54,561 bases of DNA, taken from assembly GCF_003334785.1 (NCBI RefSeq), contig NZ_QOWV01000022.1. One strand, given 5' to 3'. The DNA is from Escherichia coli (GTDB lineage Bacteria; Pseudomonadota; Gammaproteobacteria; Enterobacterales; Enterobacteriaceae). This document shows, piece after piece, positions 21,121 to 42,681 of this stretch. The notes beneath the pieces were generated by a model. The model did no database searches, had not been told where the DNA came from, and saw only the letters and a list, made by a program, of their open reading frames with translations. Position 1 is the stretch's first letter, and each line of letters starts with the position of its first letter. The translations under genes and the position numbers were made by a program.

Positions 21121-21378
21121 ATGAGTATGCCGTTAAAATGTCCTAAGTGTGGTAGCCGAAATACAGTGACAGAAACTGCCGGAAATATAGCAAAGGTGAC
21201 TCGCGATGACCGGTTTCTGACATCGACATCCGGTTATATTAGCCCGGAGCAATTACCAGAATTGCTTAAAGAAATCATCAGGGCGATACAACGTCTCTTT
21301 AGATTCCTTGAACAGCGTGAAAGGAATAATGCGCCAGTGCTGATCTGCAAGGATTGTGGATATTATGAAAGAATATAG
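21121..21378 (+). CDS. Small zinc-ribbon protein (CxxC..CxxC)
   Basis: 85 aa with CPKCGS near the N-terminus and CKDCGY near the C-terminus; GGAG ribosome-binding site upstream. Confidence 0.5.
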   Translation: MSMPLKCPKCGSRNTVTETAGNIAKVTRDDRFLTSTSGYISPEQLPELLKEIIRAIQRLFRFLEQRERNNAPVLICKDCGYYERI

Positions 21379-23210: not shown

Positions 23211-23438
23211 ATGTATAAAACTCGCGGTGAAAGGATAGCAGAAAGGCTGTGCTGGATATTACTTCAACTGTATACCGGTAATACGGTATCGGTTAATGAT
23301 ATATGTCAGCGTTTCGCGGTCAGTCGCCGAACCGGACAGCGTGATTTGTTGAGAGTTGAAACTGTAACGGAAACTATTTCACCTGGAAGGGTAAGGCTGG
23401 CAAGTTTGATAAGGGAACGAGTTAGACGAAATTTTTAA
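23211..23438 (+). CDS. Small HTH protein resembling the N-terminal DNA-binding domain of WYL-type regulators (possibly a truncated remnant)
   Basis: 75 aa; ERIAERLCWILLQLYTGNTVSVNDICQRFAVSRRTGQRDL parallels the N-terminus of the WYL regulator at 24400..25302; no WYL domain follows. Confidence 0.4.
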   Translation: MYKTRGERIAERLCWILLQLYTGNTVSVNDICQRFAVSRRTGQRDLLRVETVTETISPGRVRLASLIRERVRRNF

Positions 23439-23519
23439 TCGAATCCATATCAATTCTATAAAATATGAAACTTAACGGGAGTAAATATATACTCCCGTTA
23501 TAATGCAACCTTTTTTTAA

Positions 23520-24338
23520 CTACTCAAATGATATTAATTTAGGTACGACAGTGTTTTTATGATGTGTTGAATTTGCAAGATTAATAATATCATGAAATGA
23601 TTTCATGTCGTCGTCAGTGATTTCTACGGCTGGATCAGCTAAATCGGCACAGGTAACATTTAACCAGTGTGTTAATGAATCAATCCTGTTTGAAGTAATA
23701 TATTCAGTGTGACCAACATTCCACTTCCAGTTGATTATCCGAGCAGGTCTGAATCTCACCTCCCGAACCCCAATTGGTGTTACTGACTCAACGAGAGGGT
23801 ATATCGTGTTAAGTACTTTATCATGTTCACTGTAGATATTTAAATGCCCCATTTTTGAACCGTAAGCCATTTTCATTATGTTCTCTGTATAACTTGTTAT
23901 TGGGGTGGCTCCGGCCATAGAGATTGTTAAGAGAATATTATCATTTTTAATATAGGGTAATGTATTGTTTATTAATCGAGTCCCTAAAGAATGACCCATT
24001 ATGATCACATTACGCTTTTCTTTAACGTATATCTCGTTTATTACGTGTGCTAATTTTTCTCTGTTATTAACTGCTGCTTTCGTTGCATTATACCAGGCCT
24101 GACGCGCTTTAAATGGGATGGAGATTGATGACAATAAAGGAGATGTTCTCAGGGGGAAGAGAGTATATAACCCCCACTTGTTCGCTATGTCAGAACTTAA
24201 TATGGATAGTAGATTTGCCGATTCCCATTTATAGTATCTGACATCAAGGCCACACCCTGCTTTAATTCGGTTAAACCATGATATATCATTTTCGGTCAGA
24301 AACCCTGATACAACAAGAAGAACCGGGCATTTTTTCAT
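23520..24338 (-). CDS. Alpha/beta-hydrolase-like protein with GHSLG nucleophile-elbow motif (lipase/esterase-like)
   Basis: 272 aa, AT-rich; VIIMGHSLGTR fits the GxSxG serine-hydrolase motif; immediately downstream of and co-oriented with the WYL regulator. Confidence 0.55.
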   Translation of the reverse strand: MKKCPVLLVVSGFLTENDISWFNRIKAGCGLDVRYYKWESANLLSILSSDIANKWGLYTLFPLRTSPLLSSISIPFKARQAWYNATKAAVNNREKLAHVINEIYVKEKRNVIIMGHSLGTRLINNTLPYIKNDNILLTISMAGATPITSYTENIMKMAYGSKMGHLNIYSEHDKVLNTIYPLVESVTPIGVREVRFRPARIINWKWNVGHTEYITSNRIDSLTHWLNVTCADLADPAVEITDDDMKSFHDIINLANSTHHKNTVVPKLISFE

Positions 24339-24399
24339 GGTAACTCCATTTTTTAGCTTACAAAAATAGCACTTAATGAAAATTATATTATCCGTGTCA

Positions 24400-25302
24400 T
24401 TACGGGGCGTTACTTGGCTGGGTGTAACGTTTCAGTGCGGATTGTATATCTTCAGCAAGTTGTTGACGGATTGAGGCCGGTTGTATTACTTCGACATCCG
24501 GTATCCAGTATTTCATTAAAGGCATTATCTGATCTGTGTGTGTTACACGTGATATCACCAGTAAATCGCCAGACCGGGAAGTATGAATTATTTCCTGTCC
24601 TGGCAATAGATGACGGTGGGTAAACCACGGAGCAACATGTGCGGAAACTGAAATAAGAACTTCGATAAGGTCTTCGCTATACCAGATACCATCTGTCTTT
24701 TCTATTTTTTCATTAATTTCGGGGATTATCCTGAAAGAGATATTACTCATGCAAACGTCTTTGACAGATGAGATAACAAAGCTTTTTAATGTACTGTCAT
24801 GGGCGGCAGCGAGATACCACAATCCGTTGTCATTAACCAGTCTGTATGGCTCAACAGCCCGAAACTCTTTATCTTTGTAATTAAAATTTACTTTCTTCTG
24901 TGACAGGATGGCATAGGATAATACATTCAGAATTGACATGAATGATCCGCAGTTTTCGTATGGACGTTGTTTTATCAGAAACGGGTTGTTTTTCGTGTTA
25001 CCTAACAAAATACTCAGTAGTCTGTCATCCCAGCGAGGGAACAGCCCTTCAATGCCCAGGATGCGCGTGAAATGACGTAAATCAGCATTGCTGCGTTGAC
25101 CGAGAACACCGTCAGACAGGCGATAGCGACCATTTTGTCGAATCAGATTAAGATAGGACAGGCGCTGAGTAAGATCACGACGGATAGTTTTTTCGCAAAC
25201 GTTAAATTCCTCAGATAACTCCCGGACGGCTAGTGACTCACCATTGTTCAGGCGAGTTAATATCAATCCGAGTCGATATCCAAGTTTATCGTGCTTACCC
25301 AT
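24400..25302 (-). CDS. WYL-domain transcriptional regulator (HTH + WYL)
   Basis: 300 aa; N-terminal HTH ([21 protein letters not shown]) and a central literal WYL motif ([12 protein letters not shown]). Confidence 0.75.
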
Positions 25303-25681
25303 TCGTTTATCCGGTTAATGCCAGCGAAGAGGATATTTTCAGCAAAGTAACGGACAGGATGAGTCCACTTTTACTGTGACGGAGAAAAAAATTAACTCAT
25401 TAATTATCAATATATTAAAGCATTGCTGGAATCATCGAATAACATGTGGACTCATCCTGTCCATGTGTATTTTTACGTTCAGGGTGATAATTATTATCCT
25501 GACCTGTACATGACCTGTTTTTGCTGCATATTTGACCATGCACTTTTGCCATCAAGTCGGAGAGGCAGGGGGGAACGTAAGATCCGAAGGTTAGAGAGGT
25601 TATCAGCAATTACAATGATGATTAATATTTTCATAATATCGGAGAACATCATATTAGTTGAAATAACATAAAGGTGGTTCT

Positions 25682-26008
25682 ATGTATTTACATATCAGAA
25701 AGTATCAACTCGTAAATGCGAGATGGCGTGATGTCATTGATCTGACAGATTATGAAGAAACAATCAGTCAGGTTGTCGGTACATTATTTGGAAATGATTT
25801 TATTGAGGTCAGCGTTGAAACAAATTGTTTTATTCTGACAGTAAACAGTACAAGCAGTAAAATACCACACGGCATACTGGTGAATATGGGGAAAAGGCTG
25901 GCTGCTAATCTCCAGAGTATCACCTGTCATGCCATGCGGATCTATCATGTAAATGGCCATCCTGACGCGCGGCAGTTATTTCACTGTTTTGATGCCGATT
26001 GCCTGTGA
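25682..26008 (+). CDS. Hypothetical protein (108 aa)
   Basis: ORF with a strong AAGGTGG ribosome-binding site 5 nt upstream. Confidence 0.45.
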   Translation: MYLHIRKYQLVNARWRDVIDLTDYEETISQVVGTLFGNDFIEVSVETNCFILTVNSTSSKIPHGILVNMGKRLAANLQSITCHAMRIYHVNGHPDARQLFHCFDADCL

Positions 26009-26056: not shown

Positions 26057-28657
26057 TCAGACTGGAAGACAGAATGTCGGATATTTACGGGCTATGATAT
26101 CCATCAGTGACTTCATTCGCGGTGTTACAGAACTAAATTTCATTTGGGGTATTTTTGCTCTTACCGCATTTTTTACATCAGTCACCGTTACTGAATAGCC
26201 TTCTGACGTCAGCCATTCAGCAACCTCTTTACAGGAATAACTTTTTTTATCTTTCAGCATAAGCCCCCATTGGCACTGAGTCAGCGCCCGGAGAAATAGT
26301 CTGACTAAAATATCATCACTACGTTTGCTTCCGACTTTTAGTTTCATATCAGAAAATACCGTCCGGCAATAGAGAAAATCACACCAGTCATCCCAGTCAG
26401 CCAGGGTCTTCAGTGTATGCGTTTGCCGCCAGTCGTCGAAAAGAGAGCGTTGCTGCAGAGCCTCTTCCATATTATCCCATGGGCGGGAAGACATCAGTAA
26501 ATGCCCTTCATTCATGGCGGGCTGTACGGGCTGGCGTTTGAAATCGAATTCCAGATTAAGACGGATATCCTGTTCCCGGGATACCAGATCGCTTTCCGAC
26601 AGCCACATCTCACGCGTTGATATCAACGTACTTCGGGATAACGTCTGACCGGGTAAACGATTAAGGTAAAGATCTACCATATAGTCGTTATAGTCACTGC
26701 GTGGAATATCGGCAGGAGGTTTGACGCCAGCCCTGGCATGAACAACAGGTTTTCCCTGAATAGCTCTATAGGTTAACTGCCCCCGGGTTTTCATGGCGAT
26801 AAGCTGGCTGACCTCATGCTTACATGTCAACATTGATGAACCCGGATCAACAATATCGCACAGCGACTGGAAGCGGGAAGACAGTGGACCGCTCATGTTT
26901 ATCTTGTTAAGTGGGCAATTTGTCAAAAAGCCATCGGTTGTGACGCTGACAACCGATGAATCAGAAGGCAAAGCATTCATGAGTTCCCCGGCAACGGCGC
27001 GGATAAATCCCGTCACATGCGCAGCAAAGAATGGCTGAGTAACCGATGATGGTGGGAGGGATCTGTTTAATCCACGGGCAGTATCAAAGGCGGTTTTGGC
27101 GCGAAGGCCCTGAGCAAGTTTGCCATAAAGCGAGTTGCCAATTTCTTTCCAGAATTTCTCCTCCAGAGAACCTTTAATATGGCGATTACGGTTCTCACGG
27201 ACCTGTTGAACAAAGGGAAGAAACACCGATGTTGATTCGCTGTTATGTGGGGAGGTGTCACAGATCCAGGGGACGATGATCCCATTATGGATCGTCATCT
27301 CTGCCCCGAGCGACAGAGCAAGTTCGATTTCAGGTGCCGTTGCCCATGATTCGCCACTTAATGGAAAGAATAACCCATATTGATCGGTCCGAACCGGCAG
27401 GCTGGGATAGGGAACTGATTCCGGGAACCGAAATGTGACAAGCGCAAATCCCATCACATGCCCACAGTAATCGTCCGGATTTTTACTGAGGCGGATGTTT
27501 CCGTAATCGGGTATGAGGATATCTAATAGCCCGGTGGTATACGCTCCAGCCAGATCGTAGTCATACCAGTGATCAGACGGTGTAACCCCCATCATAAAAC
27601 ACTCATTGCGTCCGCCGTGGTAACAGTTGATCGGGAACGTTTCAAACAGCTCTCTTGAAGGAACACTGGCGGGGTTTTTAATCGTCCGGAATGCCTGTTT
27701 CTCCGTGAGCCAGAGTTCACGGGTTTTAATGTGTGTCCCAAGGCAGACTTCGGGAGACATATTGTTTTCTTTAAGTGTTTTGGTGAACCGTGAAACTGCC
27801 ATCGCCCCGATGGTGGCGGGGACACGATCAATCATCAGCTCCCGGGCGCAAAAATTGCGAACCTGTAAAGCATAACGAACCGCAATCTCGGCATCCCGCA
27901 GAGCATAGGCTTCAAACCCTGCTCTGTCCCCCAGAAGATATTCACGCATATTGGTTATGGAATAAGGTGCAGGAATGGTGAGTTTGGGAAGACCCAGTAA
28001 TTCACCACATTCAGCCAGACCCATACCCCCGGGAGTGATAAGCAGTGTATCGATGAAAGCTACGTTACTGCAACGCGGAGGGGAAGTTCGTTTGTCAAAC
28101 ATTATCTGTTCAGTCTTTACGCGACGTTCCTGCTGTTCATCAAAATCGATACCGTAACGATTTTTGAAGCTGCTGACAGTACCGCGTATTCCTTTCAGAA
28201 GAATTTTGTAGTCTGACCAGAAATTGGCAAAGGAGGCGATATCCGCACGAATGAAATGCGCATATATATTAATAATACCGGGCCATTTTGTAATCACACC
28301 CGTTTCAAGAAGCGGTGTAATCGTTTGACAGAGAAAGTCCTTAAAAGACAGCCGGGATTTTTTCTGTGAGTCAGGTGGATAGATAATGTTCGATATACCT
28401 GTATTATCGGGTAAGACAACATAACTCTGATATGACAGAATATCATTCTGTCGTGTTTCAGGGTTGAAAACATATTCGGTATCAAAACCGATATGGAGCG
28501 TCAGGTCGTTTGAAATCACAGACACGTTTTTTGATGCAGGTGGCATCACAGGATAATCATCAAGCGTTTTAGGTCTTTTACGATTGAGCGCTGGCTCTGA
28601 AGTCACGGACTGATACCCCGAGGCGGCAGCGAGGATATCCTGCAAATTATGGCTCAT
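26057..28657 (-). CDS. Family B DNA polymerase, primer-independent type (piPolB-like), with 3'-5' exonuclease domain
   Basis: Start at MSHNLQD (GGAG upstream). Exo I-like FDTEYV, candidate motif A region YDYDLAGAYTTG, motif B KEIGNSLYGK (Kx3NSxYG) and motif-C-like VTTDGF. Assignment from motif recognition, not a search. Confidence 0.7.
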   Translation of the reverse strand: MSHNLQDILAAASGYQSVTSEPALNRKRPKTLDDYPVMPPASKNVSVISNDLTLHIGFDTEYVFNPETRQNDILSYQSYVVLPDNTGISNIIYPPDSQKKSRLSFKDFLCQTITPLLETGVITKWPGIINIYAHFIRADIASFANFWSDYKILLKGIRGTVSSFKNRYGIDFDEQQERRVKTEQIMFDKRTSPPRCSNVAFIDTLLITPGGMGLAECGELLGLPKLTIPAPYSITNMREYLLGDRAGFEAYALRDAEIAVRYALQVRNFCARELMIDRVPATIGAMAVSRFTKTLKENNMSPEVCLGTHIKTRELWLTEKQAFRTIKNPASVPSRELFETFPINCYHGGRNECFMMGVTPSDHWYDYDLAGAYTTGLLDILIPDYGNIRLSKNPDDYCGHVMGFALVTFRFPESVPYPSLPVRTDQYGLFFPLSGESWATAPEIELALSLGAEMTIHNGIIVPWICDTSPHNSESTSVFLPFVQQVRENRNRHIKGSLEEKFWKEIGNSLYGKLAQGLRAKTAFDTARGLNRSLPPSSVTQPFFAAHVTGFIRAVAGELMNALPSDSSVVSVTTDGFLTNCPLNKINMSGPLSSRFQSLCDIVDPGSSMLTCKHEVSQLIAMKTRGQLTYRAIQGKPVVHARAGVKPPADIPRSDYNDYMVDLYLNRLPGQTLSRSTLISTREMWLSESDLVSREQDIRLNLEFDFKRQPVQPAMNEGHLLMSSRPWDNMEEALQQRSLFDDWRQTHTLKTLADWDDWCDFLYCRTVFSDMKLKVGSKRSDDILVRLFLRALTQCQWGLMLKDKKSYSCKEVAEWLTSEGYSVTVTDVKNAVRAKIPQMKFSSVTPRMKSLMDIIARKYPTFCLPV

Positions 28658-28703
28658 AGTTAACTCCGAAAAAATGCCGGGAGCTGTGTCCCGGCATAAA
28701 GAA

Positions 28704-29342
28704 TCAAGATTTAATAACATTTACTACAGATTTGAAAATATCGGTTTTGCGTGATTCATCATCTGCATGGATAAATGAAACGAGGTTCCTGCCTGCTTTA
28801 ATCAGGATGCCACGTTGCGTCTTTTCCACAGATGGGGTGACGCGTGCAGATAACAGACAATTTTCATGTAACTGAAGAAACTTTTTTGAGGCGTAGCCGC
28901 CATGCAGTCGGGCTTTAATTTCATTATACATATCATCAAGAGAACCGGGTTCTCCTGATTCACTCAATACCGGATAGCCCTTCTTATCAAAAAGGCTGAG
29001 GATAGATTTACCATCATGTTCGAACAAGGTAACACCGTAAATGTATTTCATTCGAAAGGTGAGGGCGTCGGTGGTGTAGATCTCCTCCTGACAACTGAAA
29101 TTTTTGAGACGCCTGGCTAATTCATTAAAAACAGCACGAGCAGTAGCCGTGTCCTGCAGGGTGTAGGTATAAAGTACGAAGCCATCTGTGCCGATGAGCT
29201 TTACTAAGTTGTCCATAATCGTGATAGCGAGAACTAATGCAAAGGACAGATATTTTTCATCGTTGTCTACAGCTGTGCTTGCTGATTCGGGAATAATGTT
29301 CAGTGCATTATTAGCGTTATTTTCCGTGTTCTTAGTAACCAT
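28704..29342 (-). CDS. Hypothetical protein (212 aa) in an operon with the excisionase-like gene and the polymerase
   Basis: ORF between the Xis-like gene and the polymerase, same strand, short gaps. Confidence 0.5.
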   Translation of the reverse strand: MVTKNTENNANNALNIIPESASTAVDNDEKYLSFALVLAITIMDNLVKLIGTDGFVLYTYTLQDTATARAVFNELARRLKNFSCQEEIYTTDALTFRMKYIYGVTLFEHDGKSILSLFDKKGYPVLSESGEPGSLDDMYNEIKARLHGGYASKKFLQLHENCLLSARVTPSVEKTQRGILIKAGRNLVSFIHADDESRKTDIFKSVVNVIKS

Positions 29343-29674: not shown

Positions 29675-30811
29675 TCATAGGTTCATTTTTGTGTCATAAC
29701 TTTCTATGACCTGAGAAACCACTGCGTGTGATGTCGCTGCATTGTGAAAAGCGTAGCGACGGGTCGCCGTGAGTGAATGGTGATTTAGCAGATGGGAAGC
29801 GATTGCAATATCCCCGGTCGCCTGTAGTATCCGGGTGGCAAAGGTACGGCGCAGGTCATGCATCCGCAGGTTATCAATGTTGGCATCCCGACAAATACGG
29901 GCAAAGGTTGCACGCGGATATGCCAGAGGGCGGGCATTGTCGGTTAGTTGTGGAAAAATGTAAGTTTTGCTGAGCATCAGGTCCTGCTGGCACTGGACAA
30001 CTGCAATGGCTGGAGGTGCAAGTGGGCAGGTGAAAGGGTGTCCGGACTTTGTATCAGGCAGTATGAGTTGATGCATATCCGGGTGCCAGTACTCCCATTT
30101 CAGGGTACATACCTCACCAATACGCATCCCCGTATAAAGAGCAAGCAATATAGAATCAGCTGCCGGTGTTTGCAGCGCTGTTGCCGCGTCAATAAAGCGC
30201 GGGATTTCTGTCGCTGACAGCGTGCGATAGCGAATGTTATTTTCTTTCAGATAGCGGACATGTGACATCGGGGAATGTGTGATCCATCCAGCACGTACTG
30301 CCAGAGAGCATATTTTGGACAATATTGCGAGGATTCGGTTTACTGTTGACGGACGTAATTTTTCCCGTAAGCCAGCAGCATATTGTTCCAGTTCTCCTGC
30401 CGTGATGTCGCGAAGTTGCCGCTTGCCCCAGAACGGGCGAACGTAGAGGTTGAGTTTTGACAACTCTGACTGAGGACTCTTTTTATACAACTGCAAATCC
30501 GGTAGCCACAGGTCATTGATGGCCTGTTCCACAGTGAATCGACGGGACTGAACCGCAAGACGATTTTTATCAGCAAGCAGTTTCATCACATGCTGACGGG
30601 CATCCTCAACGCAGAGCTGAGGGAACTGACCCAGGGTTTCATATATACGCTGATTGTTTATAGTGGCACGAAAGGCCAGCGTGATCCGATTGGGATACAC
30701 CAGAGCACGCAGGTTTTGGCAGTGAATATCACGGTATTCCTGACAACCCGTGAGGGGATGTGGAAGTTGGTGAATTGATTTGTTGCTGAAACGCAGATCC
30801 AGAATAGGCAT
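29675..30811 (-). CDS. Tyrosine recombinase (XerC/phage-integrase family), second recombinase of the element
   Basis: 378 aa; catalytic-domain motifs RIGEVCTLKW, HDLRRTFATR, and a Tyr in TRRYAFH. Confidence 0.8.
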   Translation of the reverse strand: MPILDLRFSNKSIHQLPHPLTGCQEYRDIHCQNLRALVYPNRITLAFRATINNQRIYETLGQFPQLCVEDARQHVMKLLADKNRLAVQSRRFTVEQAINDLWLPDLQLYKKSPQSELSKLNLYVRPFWGKRQLRDITAGELEQYAAGLREKLRPSTVNRILAILSKICSLAVRAGWITHSPMSHVRYLKENNIRYRTLSATEIPRFIDAATALQTPAADSILLALYTGMRIGEVCTLKWEYWHPDMHQLILPDTKSGHPFTCPLAPPAIAVVQCQQDLMLSKTYIFPQLTDNARPLAYPRATFARICRDANIDNLRMHDLRRTFATRILQATGDIAIASHLLNHHSLTATRRYAFHNAATSHAVVSQVIESYDTKMNL

Positions 30812-35654: not shown

Positions 35655-36837
35655 GGGGTGGAGTGAAAGTTATCTTGGTGAAGTGGTTACATATAAAAAA
35701 GGCTATGCATTTAATTCATCATTATATGCAGAGGAAGGGATACGGATTGTTCGAATTTCGGACACAACTAGGGACTCCATCCATTCTGACAACCCTGTTT
35801 TTATTGCTGGCGGGAATGTCGAAGGTTTAGAGCAATACAGTCTTTTCGAAAACGATATAATACTCTCTACTGTGGGATCTCGACCACATTTACTGGACTC
35901 CATGGTTGGTAAAGCTGTAAAGGTTCCGCGCAGTGCACATAATAGCTTGCTTAATCAGAATCTTGTTAAACTCATACCGAAGAAAACAAAAATAACAAAT
36001 GAGTATCTTTTTAGCATGCTTAAAACAAAGGAATTTATACAATTCATCTCAAACTTGGTTCGTGGTAATGCAAACCAAGTCTCTATAACTTTGGCTGATC
36101 TTTTTAAATATAAATTCATCTTACCTTCCCTCCCCGAACAAAAGAAAATCGCCCAAATCCTGTCAACCTGGGATAAGGCGATTTCGGTGACGGAAAAGCT
36201 TCTCACCAACAGTCAGCAGCAGAAAAAAGCCCTGATGCAGCAATTACTTACCGGGAAGAAACGGTTGCTGGATGAGAATGGGGTGAGGTTTATCAAAAAA
36301 TGGGAAAAAACCACTTTAGGGGATATCGCAAAAATCACAACAGGTAGCTCTAATAGACAGGATTCAAGCTTGGATGGAAAGTATACTTTCTTTGACCGTT
36401 CTGAGGATATTAGAACTAGCAGTATTTATCTATTTGATGGAGAGGCAATTATAGTTCCTGGAGAAGGGCAGAGATTTGAACCAAAGTATTTCATTGGTAA
36501 ATTCGATCTTCACCAAAGAACCTACGCCATAATGGATTTTGCAAGCCATTCTGGGAGGTTTCTTTTCTACATGATTGATTATCTTAAAGTTTATTTTCTT
36601 AACCAAGCTGTGGGGTCAACTGTAAAGTCTTTACGACTTCCAATGTTTCAAAAAATGACCTTTGAAGCACCGGAAATTGAAGAACAACAAAAAATCGCCG
36701 CCGTCCTCTCCGCTGCCGATGCAGAAATCTCCACACTGGAGAAAAAACTCGCCTGCCTGAAGGGTGAGAAAAAAGCCCTGATGCAACAGCTGCTGACCGG
36801 TAAGCGTCGGGTGGTTGTTGATGTGGATGCCGCGTAA
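35644..36837 (+). CDS. hsdS: Type I restriction-modification system specificity subunit
   Basis: 397 aa; two target-recognition halves separated and followed by the conserved repeats KKALMQQLLTGKKRL and KKALMQQLLTGKRRV; start overlaps the hsdM end. Confidence 0.85.
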   Translation: MVPKGWSESYLGEVVTYKKGYAFNSSLYAEEGIRIVRISDTTRDSIHSDNPVFIAGGNVEGLEQYSLFENDIILSTVGSRPHLLDSMVGKAVKVPRSAHNSLLNQNLVKLIPKKTKITNEYLFSMLKTKEFIQFISNLVRGNANQVSITLADLFKYKFILPSLPEQKKIAQILSTWDKAISVTEKLLTNSQQQKKALMQQLLTGKKRLLDENGVRFIKKWEKTTLGDIAKITTGSSNRQDSSLDGKYTFFDRSEDIRTSSIYLFDGEAIIVPGEGQRFEPKYFIGKFDLHQRTYAIMDFASHSGRFLFYMIDYLKVYFLNQAVGSTVKSLRLPMFQKMTFEAPEIEEQQKIAAVLSAADAEISTLEKKLACLKGEKKALMQQLLTGKRRVVVDVDAA

Positions 36838-42300: not shown

Positions 42301-42681
42301 AAACAGTATCTCTTGTTCCGTGAATTTGAAGAACAGGTTGAAGCCCGTAAGCTCAGCGATATCCCGGATGCACTGGCGGTAAACAAGCATGCTCAGGCGT
42401 ATTACGGTGTATTTAAAAAAGAGCTACCTGAGGTTTTTGCGGTAAACGACGTTCAGGTGCAGGATAAGTGGACGAAGCTGGCTTTTGAAGTGGACAACAT
42501 TATCGTCAAAGCGGTGGCAGAAAACTCTCTGAACCCCCAGGACATTGAGAAAGTCGTTAAGACAAGTCTGCTACCACTGCTGTTTACGGCCTGCCGGGAA
42601 ATTGGTGCCGGAATGAATCAGGTTAACCGTATTGTGGAAACCATCATCCAGATACTGCGCGTTGGTTTGATGAAATCATGA
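39397..42681 (+). CDS. hsdR: Type I restriction enzyme endonuclease/helicase subunit
   Basis: 1094 aa, GTG start with AAGAAGGA ribosome-binding site; helicase motif I (HTTGSGKS) and motif II (LIDEGHRSQ). Confidence 0.9.
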   Translation: MDKHYQPKFQEEYSAKIPALTLLTSLGWTFLSPKQIMDYRGYKQDEVVLRPVLREELSKRSFMAGGKTCQLSEKALDNLISQVCSPALNEGLLKANERMYNHLLYGIAVTEFVDGKKVNPTIALIDWEHPENNQFHFTEEFTVLRSGGVETRRPDIVCFVNGIPLAVIEAKSPAGHGKKGPTIDEGISQSIRNQLNDEIPQLFAYSQILLSINGHDGRYGTCHTPMKFWAAWREEDITDAQMYALRNHPLSTEQIHALFDHRPSADLNWYQQLIAAGELAVSGQDKLLISLLSPERLLEMTRFFTLFDKKTGKIVARYQQVFGIKRLLERISTRRPDGGREGGVIWHTTGSGKSYTMVFLSKALILHDSLKRCRIVVVTDRIDLEEQLSNTFASGGELAGKKDKANAMATSGQMLAKQIGSGKERIIFTLIQKFNSATKLPECVNTSPDIIVLIDEGHRSQGGENHVRMKLALPNAAFVAFTGTPLLKEDKTTNKFGPIVHAYTMQRAVEDKAVTPLLYEERIPDLEVNDRAIDAWFDRITDGLSEAQKADLKRKYARKGEVYSADDRIRLIALDIATHFSKNIDEGLKGQLACDSKISAIKYKKYLDEAGLFESAVVISPPDTREGNTEVDESKLPEVTKWWKDNVGTQDESVYTRNIISRFDTDEKLKLLIVVDKLLTGFDEPKNTVLYIDKPLKSHNLIQAIARVNRLHPLKKFGLLIDYRGILAELDTTIGKYQDLASRTQGGYDIKDIDGLYSAMSSEYKRLPHLYNQLWAIFAGVKNKNDTEQLRAVLVPKMEERDGEMVDIHQKTRDDFFEALTAFAGCLKVALQSATFFTDKSFTEQDRNLYKETVKQMSSLRQWAMQVSGEQVNYDDYAEQVKKLLDKHVTGVEVREPDGVYEVGKMGKSEKPEEWDNNKTRNETDIIKTRVTKMIEQELRDDPYAQEAFSKLLRMAIEEAEKLFDHPLKQYLLFREFEEQVEARKLSDIPDALAVNKHAQAYYGVFKKELPEVFAVNDVQVQDKWTKLAFEVDNIIVKAVAENSLNPQDIEKVVKTSLLPLLFTACREIGAGMNQVNRIVETIIQILRVGLMKS

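Follow-up and report, generated by a model that had tools for sequence, protein, structure and literature searches.

The WYL regulator gene and the neighbouring alpha/beta-hydrolase gene described here appear to form an operon of regulator and payload within the conserved module of a pipolin integrated at tRNA-Leu in E. coli. Comparison of the locus across genera suggests that pipolins hold a WYL-controlled payload slot, in which the WYL gene and its operator boxes are retained while the downstream payload changes. By analogy with known systems, the WYL-regulated hydrolase operon may serve the pipolin as a conflict or abortive-infection payload. We put this reading forward tentatively, as a possibility somewhat short of probable; an anti-phage defence role of the hydrolase is plausible.

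Pipolins are widespread, self-replicating integrative elements that encode piPolB. In the window, by which we mean the whole stretch of 54,561 nt that was analyzed, the island begins at tRNA-Leu(taa), past pgsA, and runs in the order IntSXT, DUF2787, the 75-aa HTH gene, hydrolase and WYL (both in reverse orientation), piPolB, Xis and IntP2. Comparison with a second pipolin locus (L002) places the far end beyond position 54561, and a search for terminal att direct repeats found no second copy of the tRNA-Leu end within the window; the only Rfam matches in the window are three tRNAs. The piPolB gene is an 887-aa ORF (26057-28720), annotated as DNA polymerase in RefSeq, with a weak Pfam match to DNA_pol_B_2 (0.0097) and the KTRG motif (...AMKTRGQL...) reported for piPolB (PMC5695915). 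The core synteny at tRNA-Leu matches the order given in passages of PMC11551731 and PMC7385651. Passages of the former (Mateo-Caceres et al. 2024) list WYL, along with IntSXT, DUF2787 and piPolB, in the core gene set of pipolins from gammaproteobacteria and handle it as a core gene of unknown role; in the same passages there is no word of the hydrolase or the small HTH gene, nor of operator boxes or of a payload slot flanked by that HTH gene and WYL. They do describe a truncated variant that corresponds to the IS1 deletion found here: among the roughly 300 pipolins of E. coli, about 110 have lost WYL and half of the hydrolase in this way, yet persist. The cargo half of the element, which follows the core, carries a type I restriction-modification system, two DUF262 proteins and Hhe. 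The WYL-hydrolase pair lies outside it, in the conserved half, which argues against a defence role, as does the persistence of the IS1-deleted pipolins.

The ORF list agrees with the original prediction of a 300-aa HTH-plus-WYL regulator followed 61 bp later, on the same strand, by a 272-aa protein with a GHSLG motif. The regulator gene (24400..25302, minus strand) comes first in the predicted operon and encodes a DeoR-type HTH-WYL-WCX protein; the 61-bp spacer (24339..24399, minus strand) holds a GGAG Shine-Dalgarno sequence 7 nt 5' of the hydrolase ATG, and the hydrolase gene (23520..24338, minus strand) encodes GHSLG at residues 115-119. The 75-aa ORF (23211..23438, plus strand) is convergent with the hydrolase gene, and between the two lies a hairpin (23473..23500) with an 11-bp stem that is predicted to act as a terminator common to both (-17.5 kcal/mol, z -4.2; 0/200 shuffles equally stable). 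A sequence scan of the 61-bp gap detected no promoter-like or terminator-like site. Because the gap has a Shine-Dalgarno sequence and neither of these sites, and because the strong hairpin is found only past the hydrolase stop, co-transcription of WYL and hydrolase is plausible. The pair is found in about 190 complete E. coli genomes (both genes intact together in 183-190), ETEC H10407 is a natural carrier, and comparison with a diverged lineage gives dN/dS values of 0.24 (hydrolase), 0.38 (WYL) and 0.20 (75-aa HTH ORF); we therefore consider the genes to be real. This arrangement, which supports the original prediction of an operon that starts with the regulator gene and continues with an apparently active serine hydrolase, also weighs against another view, namely that the hydrolase is a passenger esterase with an ordinary role in metabolism or detoxification, and that its adjacency to a regulator is meaningless. 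Both the organization of the gap, with a terminator only past the hydrolase, and the joint retention of the two intact genes make that view improbable, and the distribution of the hydrolase family, described below, points the same way.

Pfam assigns HTH_DeoR (residues 10-61, 5.6e-8), WYL (124-183, 2.5e-9) and WCX (212-290, 1.7e-9) domains to the regulator, which accordingly has the general wHTH-WYL-WCX architecture. A single-sequence search against the PDB gave no match. With a profile built from 16 homologues, the nearest solved structures were PafBC (6sj9, 7.5e-11) and DriD (7tzv, 7u02, 8tp8 and 9pfq, 3e-9 to 7e-9), with matches that span the WYL and WCX domains only and a sequence similarity that is remote. 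DriD from Caulobacter crescentus and PafBC from actinobacteria, which have the same domain order, are ssDNA-sensing wHTH-WYL-WCX activators of non-SOS DNA-damage responses. The ssDNA-contacting residues Y168, Y192, R204 and W206 of DriD (PMC9186387) align by HMMER with Y142, Y163, K173 and F175 of the pipolin regulator, a partial conservation, and the canonical G160-L-W162-Y163-L164 segment (G-L-W-Y-L-A-A) is invariant in the 16 homologues.

The BrxR/CapW proteins, WYL repressors encoded at the start of defence operons such as BREX and CBASS, offer a second comparison. They resemble the pipolin regulator in their HTH-WYL-WCX domains, their position as first operon gene, their variable downstream content, their inverted-repeat operators in the own promoter (PMC9122601) and their location in defence-rich islands, and CapW also senses ssDNA (PMC11662680). 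Membership of the regulator in this group was nevertheless rejected: the RWHVR motif, which in place of WYL marks the CapW/BrxR repressors (PMC11662680), is absent, and there is no BrxR/CapW profile match. PADLOC returned generic WYL profiles only, and no BrxR or CapW chain was among the PDB matches of the 16-homologue profile at E<=1. Their operator, an 11-5-11 repeat downstream of the -10 (PMC9122601), also differs from the 4-N7-4 boxes of the pipolin, which occur in two distant copies. By profile, motif and operator, the regulator thus appears DriD/PafBC-like and not BrxR/CapW-like, and for this reason the argument that WYL regulators control defence systems, on which the original prediction drew, is not directly transferable.

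Two predicted operator boxes lie upstream of the WYL gene. The proximal box (25352..25368) reads GTGGACTCATCCTGTCC on the coding strand, with a GGAC-N7-GTCC core, and the distal box (25446..25462), 96 bp upstream of the proximal one, is its inverted copy, so that the two form a perfect 17-nt inverted pair. They are the only copies of the 17-nt box in 54.5 kb, compared with 0.15 expected. In an alignment of the WYL upstream region from five genera, the boxes stand out as conserved islands in otherwise diverged sequence: the proximal 15-mer starts at -64 from the WYL ATG in E. coli, Citrobacter, Serratia, Cedecea and Yersinia, and the box-to-box spacing is 94-96 bp in E. coli lineages and Yersinia versus 83-85 bp in Citrobacter, Serratia and Cedecea, two classes that differ by about one helical turn. 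The same alignment reveals a conserved CTGAAAATAT element (25333..25342, minus strand) 9-11 nt downstream of the proximal box. The DriD site overlaps the -35 position of its promoters, and its distance from the -10 is fixed (PMC13004042); upstream of the pipolin WYL gene, the proximal box, which keeps a set distance from the conserved A/T-rich element, would correspond to such a site. By this analogy, CTGAAAATAT is a candidate -10 region of a promoter without a -35 hexamer, and the proximal box would take the -35 position. The GAC-N7-GTC core is that of the DriD consensus CGAC-N7-GTCG, the site in the own promoter is common to both regulators, and the box of the WYL homologue at locus L008 is exactly CGAC-N7-GTCG. 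The pipolin regulator differs from DriD and PafBC in its two phased boxes, 83-96 bp apart, and in its context: DriD and PafBC govern a chromosomal regulon with repair or division genes as outputs, whereas the pipolin regulator resides on a mobile element, with boxes found only in its own slot and a lipase-like hydrolase or GTPases as outputs.

The placement of the boxes bears on the main rival reading, in which the WYL protein would be the pipolin's own DNA-damage and life-cycle regulator, reporting ssDNA as DriD or PafBC do and tuning functions such as excision, piPolB replication or damage tolerance, and the hydrolase would serve the element or be a passenger; the enzyme might, for instance, remodel the membrane or lyse the host and so release element DNA. 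Several observations are consistent with this. WYL is a core gene alongside IntSXT, DUF2787 and piPolB, as passages of PMC11551731 report, and in Citrobacter and Serratia it is the next gene after piPolB, in the same orientation; its closest characterized relatives activate DNA-damage responses; piPolB improves survival after MMC or UV (PMC5695915); and no transfer machinery is known for pipolins, according to passages of PMC11551731. However, allowing up to 3 mismatches, the boxes in the window are confined to the WYL promoter, with none upstream of piPolB, Xis or the integrases and a weak intragenic match at 42331 as the sole extra box-like site. The third box present in Citrobacter, Serratia and Cedecea precedes other slot genes and not life-cycle genes, and the IS1-deleted pipolins are common, with piPolB and the integrases intact. 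We regard a life-cycle role as rather unlikely, though worth serious consideration.

The WYL genes of different genera are orthologues (35-70% identity), but what follows them changes from genus to genus, in a slot bordered by the 75-aa HTH gene on one side and the WYL gene on the other. The E. coli payload is the hydrolase, and that of Citrobacter and Serratia is a LeoA/BC-like GTPase. The slot contents outside E. coli include a 135-aa protein together with a 295-aa GTPase that matches PADLOC LeoBC at 7.7e-13, a match confined to the GTPase domain that does not by itself establish membership in the Dynamins system. Three dynamin-like proteins in WYL slots also match the LeoA/LeoBC profiles in PADLOC, so that GTPases resembling the anti-phage Dynamins (LeoABC) system fill the position of the hydrolase in Citrobacter, Serratia and one more distant WYL homologue; the E. 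coli hydrolase is unrelated to them. Because the WYL gene and its boxes are kept while the downstream gene changes between genera, WYL and hydrolase do not constitute a conserved two-gene system, and none of five examined relatives of the hydrolase outside pipolins (0/5) adjoins a WYL gene.

The small gene at the other border of the slot had been proposed to be the remnant of a second WYL regulator. Its product does resemble the regulator N-terminus, as had been noted, with weak similarity (26% identity over about 45 aa, pairwise E 9e-4), and it matches the N-terminus of a PADLOC WYL profile (1.1e-4). Of 26 homologue matches, the full-length ones measure 75-78 aa and come from Citrobacter, Enterobacter, Serratia, Scandinavium and E. 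coli; one other has 87 aa, and the remainder are shorter or partial entries. A 76-aa Cedecea protein shares 43% identity. The gene is present in at least six genera, always directly after DUF2787. Its conserved length, its synteny and its dN/dS of 0.20, indicative of purifying selection, contradict the remnant interpretation and identify it as a stand-alone small DeoR-type HTH protein encoded by a pipolin core gene.

We next consider the hydrolase itself. Its Pfam matches are weak and fall in alpha/beta-hydrolase families (DUF726, 1.1e-6; LCAT, 2.7e-5); the DUF726 match (PF05277, i-Evalue 1.1e-6) is partial, aligning residues 80-203 with model positions 191-316. RefSeq names the protein a DUF726 domain-containing protein, and its AFDB50 neighbours are DUF726 proteins. 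AlphaFold prediction from the single sequence gave a pLDDT of 40.6, and a 29-sequence alignment produced a good model; the fold comparison that had been proposed as a check, run on this model, indicates a lipase-like alpha/beta hydrolase, a generic fold that gives no substrate specificity. In the homologue alignment, the Ser117-Asp173-His210 triad is invariant and G12-F13 is invariant or nearly so; the latter residues may form the oxyanion hole. By eye, the protein has no signal peptide or transmembrane segment. It shares the GxSxG elbow, the Ser-Asp-His triad and the predicted fold with DUF726 hydrolases such as TMCO4, yeast Mil1 and cinquedea, and is distinguished from them by being small and apparently cytoplasmic, not secreted like cinquedea, and devoid of the N-terminal membrane domain of TMCO4. 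Gene-wide diversifying selection on the hydrolase was considered and rejected (dN/dS 0.24). Its raised divergence is accompanied by raised dS, which suggests mosaic recombination among pipolin lineages.

The distribution of the hydrolase is that of a mobile accessory gene. The family is rare, with 79 representatives among 1.8 billion; the gene occurs in about 5.6% of complete E. coli genomes, where it is chromosomal and, wherever examined, always in a pipolin at tRNA-Leu. NCBIfam contains no match. Together, these features indicate that the protein is not a housekeeping esterase, the outcome that had been named as refuting the original prediction, and they further undermine the view of a metabolic passenger, as do the examined relatives, which reside on mobile elements. 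Based on 12 exact-protein look-ups of neighbourhoods across species, a 32%-identical homologue lies in the accessory region of a lambdoid prophage, beside a methyltransferase and RexA/RexB, and other relatives lie in an integrase-linked island and on a Vibrio plasmid. With the pipolin here and this prophage homologue, the anticipated association with mobile elements and defence islands is borne out. Searches by tblastn found no match in phages and one in plasmids, from Vibrio, which is without a WYL neighbour. No PADLOC family matched the hydrolase at E<=0.1, whereas a recognized defence system follows BrxR/CapW, and the one matching PHROGs family, of unknown function, is the protein itself. 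A full-text literature search found no DUF726 protein tied to phage defence by experiment, and literature searches on serine-hydrolase or lipase defence effectors, and on pipolins in papers from 2025 onwards, gave no relevant match. A distant archaeal DUF726/DUF900 relative, cinquedea, is a bactericidal phospholipase, illustrating that such hydrolases can kill bacteria via membrane damage (preprint 10.64898/2026.06.10.730825).

The bactericidal potential of lipase-like hydrolases (preprint 10.64898/2026.06.10.730825) could also be accommodated by an addiction or toxin-antitoxin-like module, in which a toxic hydrolase is held off by a WYL repressor and loss of the element kills the cell. An operon that begins with its regulator gene and has operators in the promoter of that gene does resemble autoregulated toxin-antitoxin loci and repression by BrxR/CapW (PMC9122601). 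Yet a transcription factor is not a labile antitoxin, this regulator lacks the RWHVR motif of the repressor group, and the module is often deleted with the element retained. Moreover, the hydrolase is intact beside a frameshifted WYL gene (L011/L012) and without any WYL gene (L024). Since it remains intact with a frameshifted WYL gene (L012) or with none (L024), strong toxicity under repression is unlikely, and we judge an addiction module to be very improbable.

Under the preferred reading of a conflict payload, the regulator, presumably a dimer by analogy with DriD, would bind both GGAC-N7-GTCC boxes of the promoter from which it is expressed: the proximal one at the -35 position and, on the same face of the DNA, the distal one farther upstream by 8 or 9 helical turns. 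Its WYL domain would sense ssDNA, whether produced by DNA damage or by replication of a phage or of the pipolin, as suggested by DriD, PafBC and CapW, and this signal would switch the operon on. ssDNA-stimulated binding that leads to activation and positive autoregulation seems likelier to us than the alternative, relief of repression. In E. coli, the cytoplasmic hydrolase would then act as a conflict effector that cleaves an ester or lipid, most likely membrane phospholipid, and the stressed or infected cell would stop growing or die as a result, as in defence by abortive infection. A variant of this scheme, to which we give the least credence, replaces immunity by escape: a DriD-type regulator would couple ssDNA, from damage or piPolB replication, to a membrane-active lipase that lyses or vesiculates the host and frees pipolin DNA. 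Lysis or vesiculation would offer an exit route because pipolins lack conjugation and virion genes, and the other payloads, dynamin-like GTPases and small secreted proteins, would then be membrane-remodelling or release devices.

The WYL gene of pipolins can now be placed in a concrete, testable candidate circuit that combines helically phased, DriD-like boxes with a defined promoter region and a genus-variable payload slot. If the circuit serves the element, it would be the first entry point for studying how pipolins detect damage to host DNA. If instead the E. coli payload is anti-phage, DUF726 alpha/beta hydrolases, a family with eukaryotic relatives such as TMCO4, would represent a new family of single-gene immunity effectors, and DriD-type activators, beyond the BrxR/CapW repressors, would gate conflict genes.

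The regulator, the hydrolase and the small ORF that converges on them lie where the original prediction placed them: an ORF listing returned a 300-aa regulator (24400-25302, minus strand), a 272-aa hydrolase 61 bp downstream on the same strand (23520-24338) and a 75-aa ORF convergent with the hydrolase (23211-23438, plus strand), with the sizes, the relative orientations and the gap exactly as described there. Pfam bore out the HTH and WYL assignments of the regulator (HTH_DeoR and WYL) and added a WCX domain, and the serine-hydrolase motif GHSLG was located at residues 115-119 of the hydrolase, whose Pfam matches to alpha/beta-hydrolase families were weak (DUF726, 1.1e-6; LCAT, 2.7e-5). The 61-bp gap contains a GGAG Shine-Dalgarno sequence, neither a promoter nor a terminator was predicted within it, and a strong hairpin (23473-23500; -17.5 kcal/mol, z -4.2) separates the convergent stop codons of the hydrolase gene and the 75-aa ORF; the WYL and hydrolase genes thus look like a single transcription unit.

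The Escherichia coli chromosome in the window passes from pgsA through tRNA-Gly, tRNA-Cys and tRNA-Leu(taa) into an island, and positions 18744-54561 constitute a pipolin, a piPolB-encoding integrative element, at tRNA-Leu(taa) downstream of pgsA. No second att repeat was found within the window, so that the far end of the element lies beyond 54561. In plus-strand order, the island opens with a 246-aa ORF, an IntSXT-type integrase, three small ORFs, DUF2787 and the 75-aa HTH ORF, continues with the hydrolase and WYL genes (both on the minus strand), a 108-aa ORF and an 887-aa family-B polymerase carrying KTRG, the piPolB motif (PMC5695915), and then reaches a 212-aa ORF, an excisionase-like HTH and the IntP2-type integrase that ends the core module (29675-30811). 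The cargo that follows comprises a type I restriction-modification (R-M) system with interleaved YecA-like, cold-shock-domain and M48 genes (about 34.1-43.5 kb), two DUF262 proteins (about 44.2-47.7 kb) and Hhe (about 47.8-53.6 kb). This organization matches that published for enterobacterial pipolins (PMC7385651 and PMC11551731), the latter listing piPolB, IntSXT, DUF2787 and the WYL protein as core genes and assigning defence systems to a separate variable module. By this match, the WYL-hydrolase pair sits in the conserved half of the pipolin, outside the defence cargo.

Several smaller features of the element were recorded alongside. The 108-aa ORF (25682-26008, plus strand), divergent from WYL and lying between it and piPolB, occurs in E. 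coli pipolins, is absent in Citrobacter and Serratia, and matched no family. An 85-aa ORF just past the IntSXT integrase (21121-21378, plus strand) has two CxxC pairs, is zinc-ribbon-like and shows 58-96% identity between pipolin lineages. The type I R-M specificity gene contains a 55-nt direct repeat (36221-36275 and 36767-36821, 76% identical), probably the internal repeat that normally separates the two HsdS target-recognition halves. Elsewhere in E. coli, a 476-aa protein (P0106) joins the N-terminal third of the WYL regulator (99% identical) to a DUF262 domain (PF03235), presumably through a deletion fusing the regulator to the cargo.

That WYL is a core pipolin gene adjoining piPolB, a polymerase with a reported role in damage tolerance (PMC5695915), favors the main rival to a conflict function, namely a regulator working for the DNA-damage biology of the pipolin itself, with the hydrolase as an accessory that benefits the element; we consider this rival somewhat unlikely. 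Of 5,426 complete E. coli genomes, 296 carry piPolB, 183 an intact hydrolase and 190 an intact WYL gene, and in roughly 110 the hydrolase is reduced to its 3' 395 nt. In the one genome of the latter kind that was examined (E. coli HUE1, L022:7001-8150), IS1 stands in place of window 23915-25508, an interval that takes in WYL, the WYL promoter with both of its predicted operator boxes and the 5' half of the hydrolase, and piPolB and the integrases are intact; this deletion probably corresponds to the truncated clade described in PMC11551731. The persistence of pipolins without the WYL-hydrolase module speaks against the regulator serving the element itself.

We next consider the regulator. Used as a single sequence, it had no match in the PDB; a profile of 16 homologues, matching over the WYL and WCX region, retrieved PafBC (7.5e-11) and DriD in several entries (about 1e-9), and no BrxR or CapW chain was returned at E<=1. 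Its WYL motif is canonical (G-L-W162-Y163-L164) and invariant in homologues, whereas CapW/BrxR-type repressors have RWHVR at this position (PMC11662680). In a HMMER alignment, the ssDNA-contact residues Y168, Y192, R204 and W206 of DriD (PMC9186387) correspond to Y142, Y163, K173 and F175 of the regulator, and the DriD Arg176/Arg178 pair aligns next to K145/R148, a tentative reading under which the DriD ssDNA pocket is partly conserved.

The WYL gene is preceded by a 17-nt sequence, GTGGACTCATCCTGTCC, in two perfectly inverted copies (25352-25368 and 25446-25462). The pair is unique in the window, where 0.15 matches would be expected when up to 3 mismatches are allowed, and each of its arms is itself a GGAC-N7-GTCC dyad. 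The DriD consensus is ATACGAC-N7-GTCGTAT, and DriD homologues have CGxC-N7-GxCG in their own promoters (PMC10853764). When we aligned the sequences upstream of the WYL genes in two E. coli lineages, Citrobacter freundii, Serratia marcescens, Cedecea lapagei and Yersinia canariae, whose orthologous WYL proteins are 57-100% identical, both boxes emerged as conserved islands. In five genera the start of the proximal box is at -64 relative to the WYL ATG, with a conserved CTGAAAATAT 9-11 nt downstream. The distal box is 94-96 bp further upstream in one set of lineages and 83-85 bp in another; as these classes differ by one helical turn, the boxes would lie on one face of the DNA, and a second box in phase with the first points to looping or cooperative binding. 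One distal box, CGACAGGTTTTGTCG, found at the locus of the L008 homologue (47% identical), reproduces the DriD core exactly. Where DriD activates a promoter, its site overlaps a missing -35 and keeps a fixed distance from the -10 (PMC13004042). Because the predicted proximal box fits this layout and that of a repressor equally well, we can only infer the sign of regulation (activation or repression).

No further boxes were found in the E. coli window, including before piPolB, Xis and the integrases, and this lack of boxes at life-cycle genes likewise counts against a role in the pipolin's own biology. In Citrobacter, Serratia and Cedecea, a third, GGACAGGTTATGTCC-like box (L013:9250-9264, L014:4601-4615, L015:9247-9261 and L005:11248-11262) lies 5' of a 106/108-aa gene, at -73 to -77 from its ATG and oriented as the WYL proximal box, so that boxes precede both arms of the slot described next; E. 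coli has neither this box nor the 106/108-aa genes. A box-like AGACAGGTTGTGTCA also occurs upstream of hsdM in two pipolins (L001:29145-29159 and L023:1064-1078); it is one base off the Yersinia distal box but, given 3 mismatches relative to the box type of E. coli, may be due to chance.

Look-ups of WYL orthologues and 75-aa ORF homologues brought out the full core modules of Citrobacter and Serratia pipolins, together with a related element in Cedecea and two more distant loci. The flanks are conserved, with DUF2787 and the small HTH gene on one side and WYL, piPolB, Xis and IntP2 on the other, and the slot between them varies. E. coli has only the DUF726 hydrolase; Citrobacter and Serratia have a 135-aa protein and a 295-aa GTPase after WYL, with overlapping start and stop codons, and convergent 106-aa and 130-aa ORFs after the small HTH gene. 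Cedecea has equivalent convergent ORFs of 108 and 130 aa, whose N-termini look signal-peptide-like by eye, and a 149-aa protein after WYL. The locus of the 47% WYL homologue encodes a 326-aa protein, and that of a 35% homologue encodes three dynamin-like proteins along with two small ones. In PADLOC, the 295-aa GTPase matches LeoBC (7.7e-13) and LeoA (1e-8), and a dynamin-like protein also matches LeoA/LeoBC. Since flanks and boxes are kept while the slot genes differ, we conclude that the conserved unit is the regulator with its boxes and that the output is exchangeable. The same pattern of fixed regulator and variable output is seen with BrxR, a recognised defence regulator (PMC9122601), but here it involves an apparently DriD-like protein inside a mobile-element core. 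In the Cedecea element, an inserted gene for a 163-aa LRAT/NlpC-P60-like protein (L005:11497-11988, minus strand) also separates DUF2787 from the small HTH gene and overlaps the start of the latter.

The 75-aa ORF had been proposed to be the remnant of a second WYL regulator, a view that did not hold. It is a DeoR-type HTH weakly similar to the regulator N-terminus (26%, E 9e-4), with 26 homologues, of which the full-length ones (Citrobacter, Enterobacter, Serratia, Scandinavium and E. coli) are 75-78 aa and the others are shorter or partial entries and one of 87 aa; the Cedecea homologue (76 aa) is 43% identical. Every examined copy directly follows DUF2787, and this position, the constant length and a dN/dS of 0.20 rule out a pseudogene fragment and mark a conserved gene, possibly derived anciently from the HTH of a WYL regulator.

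Relatives of the hydrolase are few: when 1.84 billion representatives were scanned exhaustively with HMMER, only 79 reached E<=1e-3, most of them 25-35% identical. In an alignment of 29 relatives, S117, D173 and H210 are invariant, as expected of a classical alpha/beta-hydrolase triad, as is G12 of the G12-F13 pair, which we infer to form the oxyanion hole. An AlphaFold model built with this alignment was confident (pLDDT 82.9, pTM 0.84), and the fold search proposed initially gave minimal lipases, B. subtilis LipA and A. fulgidus lipase, as the nearest solved structures (Foldseek, E about 1e-5). Many esterases and thioesterases score just below, so the fold leaves the substrate unfixed; the AFDB50 neighbours are DUF726 proteins, eukaryotic TMCO4 among them. 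Searches of PADLOC and NCBIfam returned no family, and the PHROGs match is a family consisting of this very protein, with function unassigned.

Outside pipolins, a 32%-identical, 259-aa DUF726 homologue lies in a lambdoid prophage (L017/L018:9001-13405). Its gene comes immediately behind that of the Q antiterminator; an N6/N4 DNA methyltransferase and RexA/RexB come next, and the lysis genes lie beyond them. A second relative is near an integrase, a third is on a Vibrio plasmid and two are in short contigs rich in small ORFs; none of these five relatives has a WYL neighbour. A bactericidal secreted phospholipase from Haloferax, with homologues carrying DUF900 or DUF726 domains (2026 preprint 10.64898/2026.06.10.730825), shows what such enzymes are capable of, yet its relation to the E. 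coli hydrolase is distant. Compared with a lineage whose protein shares 87% of its amino acids, the hydrolase has a dN/dS of 0.24, which indicates purifying selection. That the hydrolase is a plain metabolic passenger is improbable, because the gene is rare, is confined to mobile elements and shows operon anatomy. An addiction module formed with WYL is more improbable still, because the hydrolase is intact beside a frameshifted WYL or without any WYL. A diverged E. coli pipolin lineage (L011:10138-11532 and L012:5559-6463, maybe the same isolate) has an intact, 66%-identical 283-aa hydrolase and a WYL frameshift near codon 147 that may be a sequencing error. A decayed element (L024:3648-5607) has neither WYL nor piPolB and retains, beside an intact hydrolase, DUF2787 and the small HTH gene; its homology to the window ends 20 nt upstream of the hydrolase ATG.

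WYL regulators beside defence genes, WYL as a pipolin core gene and DUF726 as an annotated domain are already known. As far as the libraries and literature searched show, the new points are the probable assignment of the pipolin regulator to the DriD-like type, its conserved predicted boxes with their helical phasing, the payload slot under their predicted control, the occupation of that slot in E. coli by a lipase-like DUF726 hydrolase, and the conserved small HTH partner gene. We tentatively favor, with somewhat less than even confidence, a DriD-type WYL regulator with an ssDNA response that switches on a conflict or abortive-infection hydrolase. A presumably dimeric regulator would bind the phased boxes, respond to ssDNA and then turn on its own operon, the output of which in E. 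coli would be a cytoplasmic lipase-like serine hydrolase acting as the effector, probably on a membrane lipid.
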